A DNA stretch of 9,766 nt from a virus (taxonomy: Duplodnaviria; Heunggongvirae; Uroviricota; Caudoviricetes): IMG/VR virus record IMGVR_UViG_2657244961_000006, one strand, 5' to 3'. The notes under the pieces were generated by a model. It was not told the origin of the DNA, did not search any database, and was given only the letters and a program-made list of their open reading frames with translations. Numbering within the stretch: the first letter of the stretch is position 1; the number at the start of each line of letters is the position of its first letter. The translations under genes and the position numbers were made by a program. Positions 3,225-9,766 of this stretch are shown here, piece by piece.

Positions 3225-3524
3225 ATGAGAACGTATTTATCTGGCTTGACTGCCAGCGGTTATGCACATCCCAAAATTATCCCCGGCGCTATTTATCGGG
3301 ATAAGAACGGCAACAGAGTAACAGTAAAATCGATAATGTTTGACCGTGTGTACTTTATTCGTGATGGCTATTCATTTCATAGCTCGCTGAACGTGGAGAT
3401 CTTTATTTGCAGATTCCGGCGGGAAATCCCGCCTTCCAGAAATAACCATGTGTCACGTGTGGATGTGGATAAAAAACTACAGGAACTGAAAAACATGATT
3501 GCCGCGTGGAGAGAGCAGAAATGA
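3225..3524 (+). CDS. Hypothetical protein (99 aa), translationally coupled to the primase
   Basis: ORF 3225-3524 with a GGGGA SD upstream; its stop (TGA 3522-3524) overlaps the primase start (ATG 3521-3523) in an ATGA arrangement. Confidence 0.55.
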   Translation: MRTYLSGLTASGYAHPKIIPGAIYRDKNGNRVTVKSIMFDRVYFIRDGYSFHSSLNVEIFICRFRREIPPSRNNHVSRVDVDKKLQELKNMIAAWREQK

Positions 3525-5338
3525 AAAAAGCGCCAAATTTAAAACACCAACCGCGTGACAAAATGACGGAAGTCATCATTTTTGCGGGTAGTGATGCGTG
3601 GGCACATGCGAAGCAGTGGCAGGAACAGGACGGGCGACTGGCTGGCGATAACGTGCCACCTGTCTGGCTTGGAGAGCAACAACTTGCCGAACTGGACAAC
3701 CTGCAAATCGTACCGGACGGACGCTATCGCGTGCGTCTCTACCAGGCGGGGTTATTGCGTCCGGGGCTTGTTAATACCATCGGGCAGAAACTGGCAGCGG
3801 CAGGTGTCAGGGATGCTGATTATTACCCTGAAGGAATGCACAGCCAGAAACGGGAGAACTGGCGCGAATATCTGGAACGTGAACGGGCAGAGCAGGCGGA
3901 AAAGAAAAAGGTAGTTGAACTGCCTGTAAAGAAAAAAGAGCGGGTAAAAGACGATAACGCTTCATCACTGGCGCTTAACCAGATGGGAGCAAGTCAACGC
4001 GGCGAAGTTCTCCTGGCACATTATGGCGGTGAACTGGCGATTCATGCTGACTCTGACACTGTTCACCATTACAACGGCGTTGTATGGGAGCCAGTACAGG
4101 ATAAAGAATTACAGCGAGCTATGGCACAGATTTTCATTGATGCGGAGATCAGCTATTCGCAGAACGCCATTAAATCGGCGGTCGATACCATGAAGTTAAG
4201 TTTGCCTGTAATGGGGAATACAGCCCGTAACCTGATTGGATTCAGTAACGGGGTATTTGATACCAGAACAGGTAATTTTCGGGAGCATAACAAAAACGAC
4301 TGGTTGTTAATTGCCAGTGAATTACCTTTCAGCCCACCAGCAGAGGGGGAAACGCTGGCAACACATGCGCCGAATTTCTGGAAGTGGTTACGCCGTTCGG
4401 TGGCTGAGAATGACCGCAAGGCGGATCGCGTACTGGCTGCATTATTCATGGTGCTGGCGAACCGGTACGACTGGCAGTTATTCATTGAGGTAACAGGTCC
4501 AGGGGGAAGTGGTAAAAGCGTGATGGCGGAGATTTGCACCATGCTGGCGGGTAAGGCCAACACAGTATCGGCAAGCATGAAGGCGCTGGAAGATGCAAGG
4601 GAACGCGCGTTAGTGGTTGGCTTTTCGCTGATTATCATGCCGGATATGACCCGCTACGCTGGTGATGGGGCAGGAATTAAGGCCATTACAGGCGGTGACA
4701 AGGTGGCAATTGACCCGAAACACAAAGCCCCCTACTCAACGCGTATTCCGGCAGTAGTGCTGGCGGTTAACAATAACGCCATGTCATTCAGTGACCGCAG
4801 CGGGGGGATCTCACGTCGTCGGGTGATATTCAATTTTTCGGAAGTTGTACCGGAGAACGAACGCGATCCAATGCTGGCGGAAAAAATAGAAGGTGAGCTG
4901 GCGGTAGTGATTCGCCATCTGCTTACACGGTTTGCTGACCAGGACGAAGCCAGACGCCTGTTATATGAGCAGCAGAAATCTGAAGAAGCACTGGCGATAA
5001 AGCGAGAGGGGGATTCGCTGGTGGACTTCTGCGGCTATCTCATGGCGTCGGTAATGTGTGATGGCCTGTTAGTGGGTAATGCTGAAATTGTGCCATTCAG
5101 CCCACGCAGGTATCTCTATCATGCCTATCTGGCTTATATGAGGGCACATGGGTTTGGTAAACCTGTAACACTGACGCGCTTCGGTAAAGATATGCCGGGG
5201 GCAATGGCGGAATATGGCAGGGAGTATATGAAACGGAAAACGAAGCACGGTTTGCGTTCAAACGTGACACTGACGGAGGAATCAGAAGACTGGATGCCAT
5301 CATGTGTATCGGTCACTAATGACGATAGCAAAAATTAA
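3521..5338 (+). CDS. P4-family phage/plasmid primase with SF3-type helicase domain (605 aa)
   Basis: ATG at 3521 (GGAGAG SD 8 nt upstream) inside ORF 3506-5338. Walker A GPGGSGKS, Walker B-like VVGFSLIIMPD, D5-N / primase C-terminal-like central region. Immediately followed by the cognate-looking iteron array. Confidence 0.85.
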   Translation: MKKAPNLKHQPRDKMTEVIIFAGSDAWAHAKQWQEQDGRLAGDNVPPVWLGEQQLAELDNLQIVPDGRYRVRLYQAGLLRPGLVNTIGQKLAAAGVRDADYYPEGMHSQKRENWREYLERERAEQAEKKKVVELPVKKKERVKDDNASSLALNQMGASQRGEVLLAHYGGELAIHADSDTVHHYNGVVWEPVQDKELQRAMAQIFIDAEISYSQNAIKSAVDTMKLSLPVMGNTARNLIGFSNGVFDTRTGNFREHNKNDWLLIASELPFSPPAEGETLATHAPNFWKWLRRSVAENDRKADRVLAALFMVLANRYDWQLFIEVTGPGGSGKSVMAEICTMLAGKANTVSASMKALEDARERALVVGFSLIIMPDMTRYAGDGAGIKAITGGDKVAIDPKHKAPYSTRIPAVVLAVNNNAMSFSDRSGGISRRRVIFNFSEVVPENERDPMLAEKIEGELAVVIRHLLTRFADQDEARRLLYEQQKSEEALAIKREGDSLVDFCGYLMASVMCDGLLVGNAEIVPFSPRRYLYHAYLAYMRAHGFGKPVTLTRFGKDMPGAMAEYGREYMKRKTKHGLRSNVTLTEESEDWMPSCVSVTNDDSKN

Positions 5339-5352
5339 ACTTATGGAATAAC

Positions 5353-5581
5353 TGTTCACCACTGTTCACCCTGTCATAAATATCTTTTATATCAGTATAT
5401 TATAGGGTGAACAGTTATTTATGAACTGTTCACCAAACTATTCACTGTTCACCTTTTTGATTGTTTATTGAGCTTCAAGGGTGAACAGTGGTGAACAGTT
5501 GGTGAATAGTTTTTGTGAAACTGTTCACCCCTTAACATTATGAATTAAAAGAGAAAATATCAAAAGGTGAACAGGTGAAGG
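5353..5581. repeat. Replication-origin-like iteron array: about 9 perfect copies of TGTTCACC / GGTGAACA in both orientations plus degenerate copies, interspersed with AT-rich DNA
   Basis: Direct copies at 5353, 5363, 5427, 5446, 5522; inverted copies at 5406, 5480, 5490, 5566; degenerate ggtgaata at 5501. The octamer TGTTCACC matches, from memory, the type I iterons bound by P4 alpha protein at ori/crr. Confidence 0.8.
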
Positions 5582-5723
5582 GTTAAAACGCAAAAATTTT
5601 AATTTACTGCTGTGAGATAAAGCCTATGACAGCGAAGCACACCAAAACAACAGGCGGGGAATGATGATCCGTACGGGGATAACATACCGTTTTAAGCAAC
5701 GAGTAACAGAAGCCGGAGCAATC

Positions 5724-5804
5724 CGCCTTTTTTATGGGTCCTCCCGGTGGAGTGGTCTGCCACGGGGCGGGAGCGTCGCGGAAAAAGGCTGGTTTTTGCA
5801 TTTT
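5724..5804 (+). other. cos-like site A: ~80-bp element resembling the lambda cosQ-cosN junction, with candidate cohesive-end 12-mer GGGCGGGAGCGT (5765-5776)
   Basis: Ungapped match to the remembered lambda right-end/left-end junction (gggtcctttccggtg...acg GGGCGGCGACCT cgcggg). Here gggtcctcccggtgg...cacg GGGCGGGAGCGT cgcgg, conserving the flanks and 8 of 12 positions of the 12-mer. About 90 percent identical to element B. Confidence 0.6.
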
Positions 5805-5853
5805 CATGGCGGCGGCAGCATGTGTGATAATTTATTGATAATTAAAAGTTATT

Positions 5854-5951
5854 TCTGTTTTCACCTGTACAATATTTTTTTCTCCCTGTCATTAGACCAG
5901 TTTGCAATTAATTGAAATATATAAATAAATCTGTTTTTCACCTGCCAGGTG
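5854..5951 (+). repeat. Two direct repeats tctgtttt(t)cacctg (5854-5867, 5930-5944) plus palindrome CACCTGcCAGGTG (5939-5951) downstream of cos-like site A; candidate cosB-like terminase-binding sites
   Basis: Read directly. They loosely recall the lambda cosB R-site region (ctgtttttgtccgtgg, from memory). Confidence 0.4.
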
Positions 5952-5993
5952 GAGTTGCCTGTGTCAAAACGTGTTCAGATGGCGGGATATTTA

Positions 5994-6017
5994 TGCCGGA
6001 TTTTCTCCGGCTTTTTT
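5994..6017 (+). terminator. Rho-independent terminator (gccgga-ttttc-tccggc followed by TTTTTTGTG)
   Basis: 6-bp GC stem, 5-nt loop and T-run read directly. Sits between cos-like site A and the 6120 gene. Confidence 0.65.
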
Positions 6018-6119
6018 GTGTCTGAATCTCATTAATCTATTTTTATGATAGAAATATGTTTATCTACCACTTTTATCGATCAATAATGTGCACAGTTTAG
6101 TCAGTAAGAGGAAGTTACT

Positions 6120-6326
6120 GTGAGTTGTATTAATGACCTGAACACGGGCGATATCAGGGGTGGTTCCGTTCATCTGGATGCGCAGACCGTTATGCGCCTT
6201 AAGCAGTACAGGATCGACCATATAAATCATCATCCTGACAAACCATTACCAGGTGTGGCGCAGATTGTCAGACATGCCGTAAACACCTGGCTTAATCAGA
6301 ATGGTTTTGCATCGGTGGGGGAATAA
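6120..6326 (+). CDS. Small putative RHH-like DNA-binding protein (68 aa, GTG start), translationally coupled to the downstream protease/capsid-like gene
   Basis: Strong SD AAGAGGAAG (6105-6113) about 6 nt before GTG 6120; stop TAA overlaps the next ATG (TAATG at 6324-6328). Product contains a beta-strand-like GGSVHLDAQTV followed by helical segments. Confidence 0.5.
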   Translation: MSCINDLNTGDIRGGSVHLDAQTVMRLKQYRIDHINHHPDKPLPGVAQIVRHAVNTWLNQNGFASVGE

Positions 6327-8239
6327 TGAATCGCTGGTACACCATTAAGGCGGCGGATGTTCGTGGAGCGGCGGATATATCTATCTATGAGGAGATTGGC
6401 GGCTTCGGTGTTACTGCAAAGCAGTTCGCGGAAGACCTGAAAGCCCTTGGCGATGTTTCACATATCAATCTGAGGATCCATTCACCAGGTGGTGATGTGT
6501 TTGAAGGCATCGCCATCTATAACCTGCTACGGAATCATCCGGCAGACATTACGGTTTATATCGATGGTGTTGCGGCTTCAATGGCTTCGGTGGTCGCAAT
6601 GGCTGGCGATCGTGTTGTGATGCCGGAAAACGCCATGATGATGATACATAAGCCGTGGGGTATCTCTGGCGGAAATGCTGGTGATATGCGTGATTATGCT
6701 GATTTGCTGGATAAGGTGGAAACCGTGTTAGTCCCTGCTTATGCCAGAAAAACGGGCAAATCAGCACAGGAAATTACCGCCATGCTGGAAGATGAAACCT
6801 GGATGGACGGGAAAGAATGCCTTAAGCACGGTTTTGCTGATGAATTGTTGCCATCCGTCAGAGCAATGGCGCGAATTGAATCGAAGCGCACAGGAGATTT
6901 TTTACATATGCCGGAAACCATTAAAGGAATGATTACACCGCCACAGGGAGCGGCAAATATTGCTGGTAATGAACAGAAACGCATCAATGGAATAAGTGAA
7001 GTGTTTAGCCTGTTCGGCAGTCGTTACGACGGGATCAAAATGGCGTGTCTGGAAGATGCATCATGTACACCGGAAATGGCCCGTGAAAAGCTGTTGAACG
7101 AGCTGGGGCGCGAGTCCACGCCATCCAATAAAAATACCCCGCCTCATATCTATGCCGGAAACGGAAACATAACAGGTGATGCAATTCGTCAGGGGCTTTA
7201 TTCCCGTCTTGGGTATGAACGCCCTGAACGAGGCAACCCTTACGCGATGATGAGCCTTTTTGAAATGGCCCAGGCATCACTGGTTGATCGTGGTATCACT
7301 GTGAGTGGTTTTATTAATCGCTCGCAGGTTGTTAATGCGGCTTTTACACACAGCAGCAGTGATTTTTCTCATATTCTGGCTGGTGGGGCTGAAAAATCTG
7401 TACTGAAAGGCTGGCAGGACAGCGGCGAAACGTTCCAGAAATGGACGCGTACCGGTTCGCTTTCAAACTTTCATGAAGCAAAGCGCGTTGGTCTGAATGG
7501 TTTTTCAAAGCTGGATAAAGTACCGGAAGGTGCGGAATATAAATACATCACCACCAGCGATAAAGGTGTACCTATTGCGCTGGCCACGTACGGGAATATT
7601 TTTTCCGTTACCCGTCAGGCCATTATCAACGATGACCTGACCCAGTTAACTACAATCCCCATGGCGATGGGACGCGCAGCCGCCAGAACAGTTGGCAATC
7701 TGGTTTATCTCCTGTTAACCAGCAACGGCAAGTTTACGGATGGTAAAGCGTTATTCCATGCCGATCATAAAAATCTTATTGCGAAGGATATGGACATGGT
7801 GGGGCTTGATGAAGCCCGTAAGCTGATGCGCCTCCAGGAGGATGCTAACGGCGACTCACTGAATATTACCCCTGCTTTTGTTCTGGTCCCTGCCGCGCTG
7901 GAATCTGCCGCGCGTCGCGCCATTCTGTCATCGTCATCAGTCTTTCCGGTTGGTGATGAGGGCACTATCAATCAGAACCCCGGCATCATTAACGTTGTGA
8001 AAGATATGGCAGAAGTAATTGTTGAGCCACGTCTTGATAAGGCCAATAGCAAGGAATGGTATGTAGCCGCAGCTAAGGGGATGGACACAATAGAAGTCGC
8101 TTATCTTGATGGTATGGATACGCCATATCTTGAGGAGCAGGTGGGCTTTACTGTTGATGGTGTCGCCTGGAAGGTGCGCATAGATGCAGGTGTCGCGGCC
8201 CTCGATTATCGTGGATTGCTGAAATCGAATGGAGCATGA
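6326..8239 (+). CDS. Fusion protein (637 aa): N-terminal ClpP-like (S14) prohead-protease domain plus large C-terminal domain, possibly an HK97-fold major capsid-like domain
   Basis: ORF 6326-8239. Residues ~20-190 show the ClpP signature (GDVFEGIAIYN, GVAASMASVVAMAGD with the candidate catalytic Ser, MMMIHKPWG with the candidate His, later acidic residues). The C-terminal ~430 aa are long enough for a scaffold plus capsid domain; the capsid assignment is from general resemblance only. Confidence 0.8.
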   Translation: MNRWYTIKAADVRGAADISIYEEIGGFGVTAKQFAEDLKALGDVSHINLRIHSPGGDVFEGIAIYNLLRNHPADITVYIDGVAASMASVVAMAGDRVVMPENAMMMIHKPWGISGGNAGDMRDYADLLDKVETVLVPAYARKTGKSAQEITAMLEDETWMDGKECLKHGFADELLPSVRAMARIESKRTGDFLHMPETIKGMITPPQGAANIAGNEQKRINGISEVFSLFGSRYDGIKMACLEDASCTPEMAREKLLNELGRESTPSNKNTPPHIYAGNGNITGDAIRQGLYSRLGYERPERGNPYAMMSLFEMAQASLVDRGITVSGFINRSQVVNAAFTHSSSDFSHILAGGAEKSVLKGWQDSGETFQKWTRTGSLSNFHEAKRVGLNGFSKLDKVPEGAEYKYITTSDKGVPIALATYGNIFSVTRQAIINDDLTQLTTIPMAMGRAAARTVGNLVYLLLTSNGKFTDGKALFHADHKNLIAKDMDMVGLDEARKLMRLQEDANGDSLNITPAFVLVPAALESAARRAILSSSSVFPVGDEGTINQNPGIINVVKDMAEVIVEPRLDKANSKEWYVAAAKGMDTIEVAYLDGMDTPYLEEQVGFTVDGVAWKVRIDAGVAALDYRGLLKSNGA

Positions 8240-8267: not shown

Positions 8268-8431
8268 GCGGCGAGCTGCCGCACCATATTCCTGAACAAC
8301 TGAGCAAACGAGAGAGGTATACCGACAAATGGCAGCGACGCACACACTCCCTCTGGCGTCACCGGGCATGGCACGCATCTGCCTTTACGGGGATTTACAA
8401 CGATTTGGCCGCCGCATCGATCTTCATGTGA
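8268..8431 (+). pseudogene. Start-less 3' remnant of a lambdoid tail-tip assembly protein K-like gene, overlapping the start of the I-like gene
   Basis: The frame is open from 8240 to the TGA at 8429-8431 with no start codon, encoding ...GELPHHIPEQLSKRERYTDKWQRRTHSLWRHRAWHASAFTGIYNDLAAASIFM. This resembles the C-terminus of lambda K as I recall it, and in lambda K overlaps I in the same way. Confidence 0.5.
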
Positions 8432-8970
8432 AAACGGGGGCCGAAGCCATCCGGGCGCTGGCCATGCAGATCCCAGCGTTTCGTCAGAAACTGAGCGATG
8501 GTTGGTATCAGGTGCGTATTGCCGGGCGTGATACAGGCGAAAACGAATTATCAGCCCGTCTTAATGAACCGCTGGAAAATGGTGCCGTGATCCACATCGT
8601 ACCGCGTCTGGCTGGTGCCAAAAGTGGCGGCGTGTTTCAGGCGGTGCTTGGTGCGGCGCTGATTGCTACGGCAATCTGGATGCCAGGAATCAGTATCGCT
8701 TTCAGTGACATTCTCTTTTCAATGGGGGCGGCGATGACACTTGGTGGTGTTGCACAGATGCTGGCACCGAAAGCCAGCACAGCAACAGCCAGCACCACGG
8801 ATAACGGTAAGCAGAACACCTATTTCTCCTCTCTGGATAACATGGTTGCCCAGGGCAATGTTATGCCTGTTCTGTACGGTGAAATGCGCGTCGGGTCGCG
8901 GGTGATTTCGCAAGAGATCAGCACAGCAGATGAAGGGGATGGCGGCCAGATTGTGGTGATTGGTCGCTGA
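8329..8970 (+). CDS. Lambdoid tail-tip assembly protein I homologue (213 aa)
   Basis: ORF 8329-8970. N-terminus MAATHTLPLASPGMARICLYGDLQRFGRRIDL... and C-terminus ...DNGKQNTYFSSLDNMVAQGNVMPVLYGEMRVGSRVISQEISTADEGDGGQIVVIGR closely match my recollection of phage lambda gpI. The central hydrophobic segment is shorter than in lambda. Confidence 0.8.
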   Translation: MAATHTLPLASPGMARICLYGDLQRFGRRIDLHVKTGAEAIRALAMQIPAFRQKLSDGWYQVRIAGRDTGENELSARLNEPLENGAVIHIVPRLAGAKSGGVFQAVLGAALIATAIWMPGISIAFSDILFSMGAAMTLGGVAQMLAPKASTATASTTDNGKQNTYFSSLDNMVAQGNVMPVLYGEMRVGSRVISQEISTADEGDGGQIVVIGR

Positions 8971-8987
8971 TACAAAACGTTTTATGT

Positions 8988-9010
8988 AAAACCGCCTGCG
9001 GGCGGTTTTG
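8988..9010 (+). terminator. Rho-independent terminator (aaaaccgcc-tgcg-ggcggtttt) after the I-like gene
   Basis: GC stem flanked by an A-run and a T-run, read directly. The same hairpin follows gene I in lambda, as far as I recall. Confidence 0.7.
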
Positions 9011-9041
9011 TCGCTCATGGAGCATAAACAATAGTGACAGT

Positions 9042-9124
9042 CGCCTTTTTTGGGTGGGTCCTCCCGGTGAGGTGGCCTGCCACGGGGCGGGAGCGGCGCG
9101 GAAAAAGGCTAGTTTTTGCATTTT
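9042..9124 (+). other. cos-like site B: second copy of the cosQ-cosN-like element, with candidate 12-mer GGGCGGGAGCGG (9085-9096), directly upstream of the Nu1-like gene
   Basis: About 90 percent identical to element A over ~80 bp. The downstream AT-rich DNA (ttcgtcat..., gtttttattt) resembles the lambda cosB/I-site region as remembered. The position relative to the small terminase gene mirrors lambda cos-Nu1. Confidence 0.65.
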
Positions 9125-9280
9125 TATTCGTCATCATCATCTTTCTATTATATTGAATTTTAAGTGTTTTTATTTTTGGTATGTTAATTTTGCTTATTTT
9201 GTGTTCAACATGCAGCGCGTTTTTTGACCTTTTTTAAAAGATATTTGCAAGATGCATTTTTAAAACATTCTGGAGCGGGT
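9125..9280 (+). promoter_or_regulatory. AT-rich cosB-like / promoter region upstream of terS
   Basis: A+T-rich 150 bp between cos-like site B and the terS start; contains ttcgtcat and gtttttattt motifs; no individual promoter elements called. Confidence 0.4.
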
Positions 9281-9766
9281 ATGGATCGGGAACTGAAAAA
9301 TCTGATGCTGAACATTAACCAGCTGGCGGCGATAGCGGGAATATGTCGCCAGACTGCGGCGGCAAGGCTGAAAAATATCCAGCCAGCCGGAGGACATGAC
9401 AAGCTGAAACTCTATCGGGTGACTGACATTCTGACCTGTTTTCTTGATCTTCCCGTTCCGGCATCACTGGAAGAAATGGAGCCACACGACCGTAAGGCCT
9501 GGTATCAGTCCGAACGTGAGCGCCTCAAGTTCGAACAGGAAACGGCGCAACTCATACCCGCCGATGATGTGCGAAAAGAGATGGCTATATGGGGAGAAAT
9601 CGTAAGCGAGGAACTGGAAAAACTCCCCAGTATTCTGGCACGTGATGTTGGGCTTAAACCGATGGCAGTAAACAGAGTGCAGTCAATTATTGACGATTTG
9701 TGTAATCAGATTATCAGCCGGATGGTAAAAAATGACGTAGTGAATGAGGTCGCAAAACAGGCATGA
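9281..9766 (+). CDS. terS: Nu1-like small terminase subunit / packaging-specificity protein (161 aa)
   Basis: ATG at 9281 (GGAG SD 6 nt upstream) inside ORF 9224-9766. N-terminal winged-HTH-like segment LNINQLAAIAGICRQTAAARLKN...LKLYRVTDIL parallels lambda Nu1 (VNKKQLADIFGASIRTIQNWQ...EVLYDSAAVIKWY, from memory), followed by a helical ERERLKFEQETAQL region. Confidence 0.7.
   Translation: MDRELKNLMLNINQLAAIAGICRQTAAARLKNIQPAGGHDKLKLYRVTDILTCFLDLPVPASLEEMEPHDRKAWYQSERERLKFEQETAQLIPADDVRKEMAIWGEIVSEELEKLPSILARDVGLKPMAVNRVQSIIDDLCNQIISRMVKNDVVNEVAKQA

Follow-up and report, generated by a model that had tools for sequence, protein, structure and literature searches.

In the TerS-S strategy of the Staphylococcus aureus pathogenicity islands (SaPIs), the small terminase of the satellite redirects the large terminase (TerL) of the helper phage to the satellite's own site. 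Other satellites are known to carry the cos of their helper, namely P4 (with the P2 cos) and SaPIbov5 (cited in bioRxiv 10.1101/2022.09.08.507074), and at the position of cos, the helper-embedded phage-inducible chromosomal island (PICI) 11capE and its helper have 258 bp in common at 90% identity (PMC10111431). The Escherichia coli island EcCICFT073 has two cos sites, both reported to be without a phage cosB; only cos1, recognised by a complex of Rpp and the small terminase (TerS), is needed for transfer by lambda and phi80 (PMC6092414, PMC6739421). According to Murialdo and Feiss, the functional EcCICFT073 site is the one that adjoins rpp (PMC9026076). Here, we describe an E. coli PICI of ~10.8 kb with two cos sites, denoted A and B, represented by a 9,766-nucleotide stretch of viral DNA (the window; IMG/VR record IMGVR_UViG_2657244961_000006). 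Our subject is the segment at 5805–6119, which follows the core of site A and ends at the start of orf68, the first gene of the operon that encodes the capsid homologue. Three modules make up this segment, namely one half (cosB) of a cos cassette, a terminator, and a leader with a putative promoter. Site A probably allows the terminase of a helper phage of the cdtI class to package the island directly.

Site A Is a cos Cassette of Phage Type

The 233 bp at 5736–5968 were 93–95% identical to the cos, cosB and terS start of phages cdtI (NC_009514), Tritos (OV696610) and HannyBb (PP925841), rising to 96–100% when the core of the site was considered alone (Table 1). When the region 5600–6330 was compared with complete E. 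coli genomes by megablast, 2456 genomes matched. Most of the matches spanned only 5736–5968, and they mostly sat just upstream of a DUF1441 gene adjoining the large-terminase gene of a lambdoid prophage. A cosB of the site A type was present in 837 of 5426 complete E. coli genomes. From this homology, the part of the segment at 5805–5968 is almost certainly cosB sequence of the cdtI class.

The boundaries of the cassette could be placed by alignment with the phages. The deposited genome records of cdtI and Tritos start at the base aligned with window position 5765 (GGGCGGGAGCGT), which is therefore, by homology, the likely left cohesive end. The start codon of the phage terS aligns with 5961, where the phages have ATG and the island has GTG, and the similarity ends at 5968. 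Since the cosB segment ends eight bases inside terS, no terminase gene follows site A, as an earlier note on this DNA had observed; the next gene is orf68, followed by the ClpP-protease/major-capsid fusion. Of a cognate terS directly downstream of the site, only the eight bases at 5961–5968 are left. Adjacency of terS to cos is typical, but is not needed for function in trans. A mini-ORF (open reading frame) of 24 codons at 5961–6035, which runs from the vestigial terS start through the terminator, was considered as a gene and rejected, as it is frameshifted in the strain 20 copy of the island.

Table 1. Features of the window, with strand where assigned; distances from the cos end are counted from the inferred cohesive end of site A.
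Feature	Position	Strand	Remarks
Tyrosine integrase	1–1239
AlpA	1657–1866
DUF4222 protein	3225–3524
D5-type primase/helicase	3506–5338
Origin	5340–5580		CTGTTCACC iterons
ssb 3' remnant	5644–5695	+	about 17 last codons, ending in KQQAGNDDPYGDNIPF and a stop; end of the replication module
T1, terminator-like hairpin (ssb terminator)	5712–5733	+	GCCGGAGCAATCCGcC + T6; left flank of the cassette
cos site A core	5736–5807	+	cosQ-like start GGGTCC, cosN; common to all DUF1441-TerS lambdoid phages compared
cosB, cdtI/Tritos/HannyBb class	5808–5968	+	from cosN to the phage terS start, plus 8 bases of terS
Integration host factor (IHF) consensus site	5828–5840	−	TATCAATAAATTA; bp 64–76 from the cos end; placed like lambda I1
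Repeat 1	5854–5867	+	tctgTTTTCACCTG; bp 90–103 from the cos end; R2-like candidate TerS-binding element
Repeat 2 with overlapping palindrome	5930–5951	+	tctgtTTTTCACCTG, CACCTGcCAGGTG; bp 166–187 from the cos end; R1-like candidate element
Phage terS vestige	5961–5968	+	start of the DUF1441 coding sequence of prophage EC7518 and cdtI maps here
T2, intrinsic terminator	5995–6017	+	GCCGGA-TTTTC-TCCGGC (5995–6011) + TTTTTT (6012–6017); right flank of the cassette
Leader and putative promoter of the orf68-capsid operon	6018–6119	+	putative −35 TTTATC 6059–6064, putative −10 AATAAT 6082–6087
Shine-Dalgarno sequence	6107–6114	+	AAGAGGAA; orf68 leader
orf68 (phrog_4934)	6120–6326	+	first late-operon gene; stop/start overlap (TAATG) with the capsid fusion
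ClpP-protease/major-capsid fusion	6326–8239
Lambda tail-assembly-I-like gene	8329–8970
cos site B with its own cosB, mEp460/phi458/PhiR40 class	9056–9280	+	core 9056–9127, inferred end 9085; directly upstream of the island terS
DUF1441 small terminase (island TerS)	9281–9766

Candidate Terminase-Binding Elements in cosB

The earlier note had described two direct repeats downstream of site A, tctgttttcacctg and tctgtttttcacctg (5930–5944 for the latter), 76 bp apart from start to start, and a palindrome, CACCTGcCAGGTG (5939–5951), and all were present as described. Taken by sequence alone, neither the repeat nor the palindrome exceeds what chance would give: an exact direct repeat as long as the longest one here, 10 nt (TTTTCACCTG), was reached in 8.5% of 2000 dinucleotide shuffles of 5805–6119, and a palindrome with 6-nt arms in 34%. 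For the repeat, the shuffle test concerned this exact 10-nt match, which lies within the 14/15-nt repeat with one indel. The significance of these features comes from homology and from the conservation of their positions in phages. The note had also seen in them an independent architecture belonging to site A itself; the segment is instead a borrowed phage cassette, in which the ribosome-binding site and the first eight bases of the phage terS are retained. Its further suggestion of a second terminase-binding region, possibly for a helper TerS, is supported for 5805–5968 by the homology to the cdtI-class cosB, and does not extend to 6018–6119.

A first scan of IMG/VR with the cdtI TerS returned only proteins of 99–100% identity, too alike for testing constraint. 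A second scan, seeded with the TerS of Providencia phage PSTCR8lys (56% identical to that of cdtI), gave a wider diversity. The resulting set of 21 cosB representatives, which covers the wider TerS clade, consisted of 19 from the PSTCR8lys-TerS scan, a cdtI-class prophage copy and site A, with no pair more than 90% identical. In 13 of the 19 scan representatives, cosN was found by pattern, at a distance of 194–198 bp from terS. The pentamer CACCT/AGGTG occurred 3.2 times per 200 nt in the 21 representatives, compared to ≈0.38 expected, and peaked at about −140, −100, −75, −25 and −10 from the terS ATG. Repeat 1 falls on the −100 peak (16/21) and repeat 2 on the −25 peak (15/21), which are the two commonest pentamer positions. 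The hexamer CACCTG/CAGGTG is found three times in the 192-nt cosB of site A, versus 12 times in the other 9.6 kb of the window. The core of the repeats, TTTTCACCTG, lies at bp 94–103 and 171–180 from the cos end, and a weaker CATGTG is present at bp 55–60, where relatives have CAGGTG. The perfect IHF consensus WATCAANNNNTTR has its single match in the whole window between cosN and repeat 1, and the consensus recurs at the same position and on the same strand in 7 of the 21 diverged representatives.

In lambda, cosB has the order R3-I1-R2-R1, with R3 at bp 50–65 and Nu1 at bp 191 (PMC9026076). The layout of site A parallels that of lambda. By their position and their recurrence in related phages, two or three CACCTG-type elements at lambda-R-like distances are candidate R elements. 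No experimental definition of R elements for phages of the cdtI class was found in the literature.

The island copies of this cosB differ from the phage consensus by a few nearly fixed differences, at 5824, 5857, 5930, 5934, 5949 and 5960–5961. Through several of the island-specific changes, the two repeats come to resemble each other more closely and the palindrome becomes perfect. At position 5949, the islands fall into two roughly equal groups; the palindrome is imperfect in the phages and in about half of the islands, where its second arm reads CAGATG, and perfect in about half of the island copies.

Terminator Hairpins and the Leader of the Late Operon

The cassette is flanked by two hairpins, T1 and T2. 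T2 has a stem of 6 bp, five of them GC, a 5-nt loop and a U6 tract, with a folding energy of −12.4 kcal/mol (z = −4.1); none of 200 shuffles folded as well, and it was the sole terminator-like site in 5300–6400. The terminator of the earlier note was thus recovered as a hairpin followed by T6, the description "strong" being generous for a 6-bp stem. T2 duplicates the hairpin that precedes site A, in which one stem pair is broken in the window (−9 kcal/mol, z = −0.8). A hairpin of the T1 type (GCCGGAG[A/C]AATCCGGC-T6) precedes both cos sites of the PICI of strain Nissle. Homologues of orf68 were found to be encoded at 52 loci, of which about 30 show the complete arrangement at 95–100% identity. 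In distant loci, a terminator of different sequence is found at the same position, immediately before the leader, which argues that insulation of the late operon from upstream transcription is a conserved function.

Downstream of T2, the leader contains the blocks ATTAATCTnTTTTTnTGATAGAAA, TTTAYYTACCACTTTT and GATCAATnAT, which are conserved in 13 loci where orf68 is 59–100% identical. These loci differ in both their upstream and downstream neighbours, and the leader module travels with orf68. A scan of 5300–6400 with a consensus promoter gave no match at its threshold. The hexamers TTTATC and AATAAT, 17 nt apart, have 3/6 and 5/6 consensus matches, respectively, coincide with the conserved leader blocks and are preceded by an A/T-rich element. 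On the strength of this conservation, we propose that 6018–6119 is the putative promoter of the orf68-capsid operon. The idea that the segment is a control region for the capsid operon would thus hold for the leader; it fails for the repeats, which are phage sequence separated from the operon by the terminator.

The conserved GATCAATnAT block (6078–6088), which overlaps the putative −10 hexamer, includes a Dam site, GATC, found in 12 of the 13 diverged leaders; methylation- or replication-coupled control is possible. In RefSeq, a 57-residue ORF has been called on the minus strand at 6060–6233 in several copies of the island. The conserved gene at this place is the plus-strand orf68, with its phrog_4934 assignment, strong Shine-Dalgarno sequence and TAATG overlap. 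The orf68 product has a two-helix pattern, and its single-sequence structure model is poor (predicted local distance difference test score of 62), so that a ribbon-helix-helix protein is a guess.

Site B and the Island TerS

Sites A and B are alike only in a core of ~70 bp. Over its full length, the cosB of site B matches the cos regions of the phages mEp460, phi458 and PhiR40-type at 77–80% identity, and it is ~80% identical to the cos of the prophage of strain 20 that hosts a sister island. The island TerS is 65–68% identical to the TerS proteins of the mEp460/phi458/PhiR40-type phages, and its N-terminal domain, which is presumably DNA-binding, is 75% identical to that of PhiR40_1 versus 20% to that of the cdtI TerS. 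Since this domain and site B are of the same class, site B and not site A is the match for the island TerS, which presumably serves site B. For site A, the helper's own TerS would presumably be needed. In a sequence search of the PDB, neither the island TerS nor the "terminase small subunit" of the Nissle PICI gave a match to Rpp or gpNu1, and sequence thus lends no support to membership in the Rpp family.

Phages of both the cdtI class and the site B class carry the same head type, with a protease-capsid fusion, and each is ~56–57% identical to the island copy. Islands of this family are also found within such prophages. In strain 20, the sister island is integrated in the large-terminase gene (terL) of a lambdoid prophage with TerS and cos of the mEp460/PhiR40 class. 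In the IMG/VR contig 2609460219_000007, a cdtI-class terS is followed 8.8 kb further downstream by an orf68 island with site A in the same orientation (the two loci at 20.3 and 29.0 kb). This island is probably another helper-embedded copy, in this case in a cdtI-class prophage.

Minus-strand ORFs at 5604–5807 (MKMQKPAFFRDAPAPW…) and 8918–9121 (MQKLAFFRAAPAPW…) are homologous to each other and owe their existence only to the homology of the two cos cores. These ORFs across cos are probably not genes, and the same holds for comparable "hypothetical proteins" that a number of phage records show at cos.

Proposed Packaging through Site A and Alternative Explanations

The mechanism that we favour for site A is modelled on the biology of lambda. 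When a phage of the cdtI class grows in the cell, the island would excise and replicate. The phage TerS would bind the cosB elements, IHF would bend the DNA and TerL would nick cosN at 5765, so that helper heads would be filled rightwards with island concatemers, without the need for any factor encoded by the island. The island TerS, with a DNA-binding domain of the other class, would serve site B, and the island would therefore have packaging signals for two specificity classes of helper. T2 would stop read-through from the replication module and cos, thereby insulating the late operon, and 6018–6119 would drive the orf68-capsid operon.

More tentatively, the island may be a satellite of dual specificity, in which a single cosN type is shared by the cosB of site A, for the helper TerS, and that of site B, for the island TerS. 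Such an island could be packaged by two otherwise incompatible helper classes, and the first cos slot, with its recombining hairpins, would be an exchangeable socket for the cos of the current helper. We consider this extension possible, if somewhat doubtful. The substitutions specific to the islands might even cause TerS to bind site A better than it binds the phage cosB. The circular island measures 10.79 kb and its cos sites are 3.32 kb apart; as a speculation, DNA packaged from site A up to the site B that lies four units further on would measure 46.5 kb (4 × 10.79 + 3.3), near the 47.0 kb of the cdtI genome, and two cos sites might, equally speculatively, enlarge the set of head-filling lengths.

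If site A acts as we propose, the second cos site of the island is explained as a helper-native packaging signal, not an island invention, and PICIs could widen their helper range by combining a borrowed cos with a TerS/cos pair of their own. This bears on an unsettled point in the literature, namely why E. coli PICIs have two cos sites and what the purpose of the dispensable one is. The analysis also gives a first in silico map of cosB, with the IHF site and the CACCTG-type elements, for the DUF1441-TerS lambdoid phages, which are very common and include relatives of Stx phages. This map could be useful for predicting which prophages are able to mobilise a given island.

Several observations weigh against a role of site A in packaging. 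Five loci with the same backbone are without exactly 5736–6020, and have a single hairpin, GCCGGAGAAATCCGGC-T6, joined directly to the leader (…TTTTTTGTGTCTGAATCT…). Either the insertion of the cassette duplicated the hairpin, or the two hairpins recombine and the cassette is lost; the existence of such sister islands means that site A is dispensable for maintenance of the island. EcCICFT073 does not require the positional equivalent of site A (probably cos2), and was transferred more by lambda and phi80 once this site was deleted (PMC6092414). Phage populations are polymorphic at the first CACCTG, with CAGCTG and TTTTTACCTG as common alleles, and there is no obviously strict constraint on it. 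The elements nearest terS overlap the ribosome-binding site, and in the phages could serve terS expression rather than TerS binding. Finally, a second copy of the cosB, possibly marking a resident cdtI-class prophage, was found in only ≈13 of the best 60 island-bearing genomes; compared with the ≈11% of all genomes that have a phage-type copy, this is a weak signal of co-residence of island and prophage.

Some of these observations would be expected if site A were a passenger, left behind when the island and a cdtI-class phage recombined, or kept while the flanking hairpins did so, with no role in the life cycle and with site B packaging everything. The duplicated hairpins around the cassette and its clean absence from sister islands fit such a scar, as do the mutation of the terS start to GTG, the truncation of the gene, and the dispensability of the EcCICFT073 site that does not adjoin rpp (PMC6092414). 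The island copies are moreover so similar (95–100%) that their conservation cannot demonstrate selection. However, 19 distinct copies of the island, on several backbones (orf68 84–100% identical, different ori types), have an intact cosN and all of the cosB elements intact, and the phage segment stops eight bases into terS, which corresponds to a minimal functional cos unit and not to a random fragment. The Nissle PICI has a cos of another class (Stx2/VT1-Sakai) at the same position, suggesting that the slot has repeatedly been filled with helper-type cos. We therefore consider a scar unlikely. It is more improbable still that site A acts mainly as a decoy, which would titrate the helper TerS or terminase, or provoke competing cutting, and lower the helper yield rather than, or besides, aiding transfer. 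Interference with the packaging of the helper is a known property of PICIs (PMC6739421), and the site has a full phage-type cosB whose island-specific changes give more uniform repeats and a perfect palindrome. Replicating island DNA with a functional cos would in any case be packaged, though, and the decoy is hard to separate from packaging by the helper.

Two further explanations concern the repeats themselves. If a regulator of the capsid operon used the repeats and the palindrome as its operators, their location upstream of that operon would be suitable, and the two-helix pattern of orf68, from a low-confidence model, could fit a small DNA-binding protein. Yet the repeats are phage sequence that lies upstream of terS in phages without orf68, the terminator separates them from the operon, and the conserved leader blocks are all downstream of that terminator; the repeats are also wholly absent from islands and further elements in which this leader and orf68 are present. 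This makes an operator function very improbable. We give the least credence to a role at the island origin, for which the repeats would be iteron-like accessory sites that might bind the island primase or initiator. CTGTTTT(T)CACC does resemble the origin iteron CTGTTCACC, and the resemblance is raised by two island-specific substitutions (5857 C>G and 5934 A>T), but the repeats have two to three extra T inside the motif, their core TTTTCACCTG is inherited from phages without this origin, and the same substitutions occur in seven island copies that have no match to this ori. Identity with the iterons was rejected on account of the extra T and the presence of the repeats in phages and in islands that do not have this ori. 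Packaging of the island through site A by a cdtI-class helper thus remains the explanation that we prefer.

Genetic Context of the Island

A near-identical copy of the island is present in RefSeq in the chromosome of CUVET16-819, between rcnR and thiM. Another is deposited as a free circle of 10,790 bp, annotated as plasmid pZ1323HEC0475-3 (NZ_CP148328.1), which contains the integrase through TerS and one small ORF. The circle may be the island in its excised and possibly replicating state, caught in a finished assembly. The replication module (pri/ori/ssb) precedes site A and the operon of the capsid homologue follows it, with the second cos next to the TerS-like gene, in synteny with the Nissle PICI, CUVET16-819, strain 20 and pZ1323HEC0475-3. 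Translated, the ssb remnant agrees exactly with the C-terminal end of the SSB of the Nissle PICI, and it has stop codons upstream. Since ssb is intact at the equivalent place in the Nissle and strain 20 sister islands, the island in the window has lost it.

A homologue of the lambda tail-assembly-I gene (8329–8970) lies between the capsid gene and site B and is absent from the CUVET16-819 copy. In pZ1323HEC0475-3, it is preceded by a tail-protein fragment. The homologue is a captured tail gene of a helper. An Rfam scan of the whole window with E values up to 1 gave no match in 5600–6120, and a known small RNA ending at the terminator is therefore unsupported. Elsewhere in the window, the scan gave only sub-threshold SymR-like and miRNA-like matches. 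The match to the SymR antitoxin RNA, at 2641–2713 on the minus strand near a YlcI/Icd-like region, scored 26.9 bits (E = 0.1), compared to a gathering score of 61.

Comparison with Known Systems

Compared to the left ends of cdtI, Tritos and HannyBb, the island is without terS and terL after cos, has terS cut at eight bases, with its ATG changed to GTG, and has the cassette flanked by terminator hairpins. The similarity to a lambda-type cos extends to the overall dimensions: the distance from the cos end to the terS start is 197 bp in the cdtI class and site A, versus 191 in lambda, an IHF consensus lies between the cosN-proximal part and the first repeat, and short elements recur at about bp 55, 98 and 175 in the site A class.

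A close counterpart among published islands is EcCICFT073, which has the same order of int, alpA, primase, ori, (ssb), a first cos, a small ORF with the capsid gene(s), and a second cos, which directly precedes a TerS-like gene. There is also homology in the cos core and in the ssb-terminator hairpin before it. Because the functional EcCICFT073 site adjoins rpp, site B would be the positional counterpart of cos1, and site A that of cos2. The two islands differ in that Rpp reprograms the helper TerS in EcCICFT073, whereas the window island has a full-length DUF1441 TerS, and in that the first cos of the window has a genuine phage cosB, 93–95% identical to the cdtI class. In the Nissle PICI, which is EcCICFT073-like, the first cos is 87–91% identical to Stx2-converting and VT1-Sakai phages over the core and ~100 bp beyond. 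This match is at odds with the published view of PICI sites as being without a phage cosB, and helper-type sequence in the first cos slot may be general among PICIs.

Site B together with the island TerS resembles the TerS-S strategy of the SaPIs, transposed to a cos system; site A does not. The window island is of the cos type, not pac, and no Ppi-like inhibitor was identified in it. Site A is more like the packaging signals of P4, SaPIbov5 and 11capE, where the signal of the helper is copied and the unmodified helper terminase packages the satellite. The island differs from these in that it also keeps a second cos of another class with a matching TerS gene. As the concept of a satellite carrying the cos of its helper is already established, the gain is incremental; what is new is the presence of two cosB classes on one island, together with a possibly exchangeable, terminator-flanked slot, a modest variant of the known arrangement.

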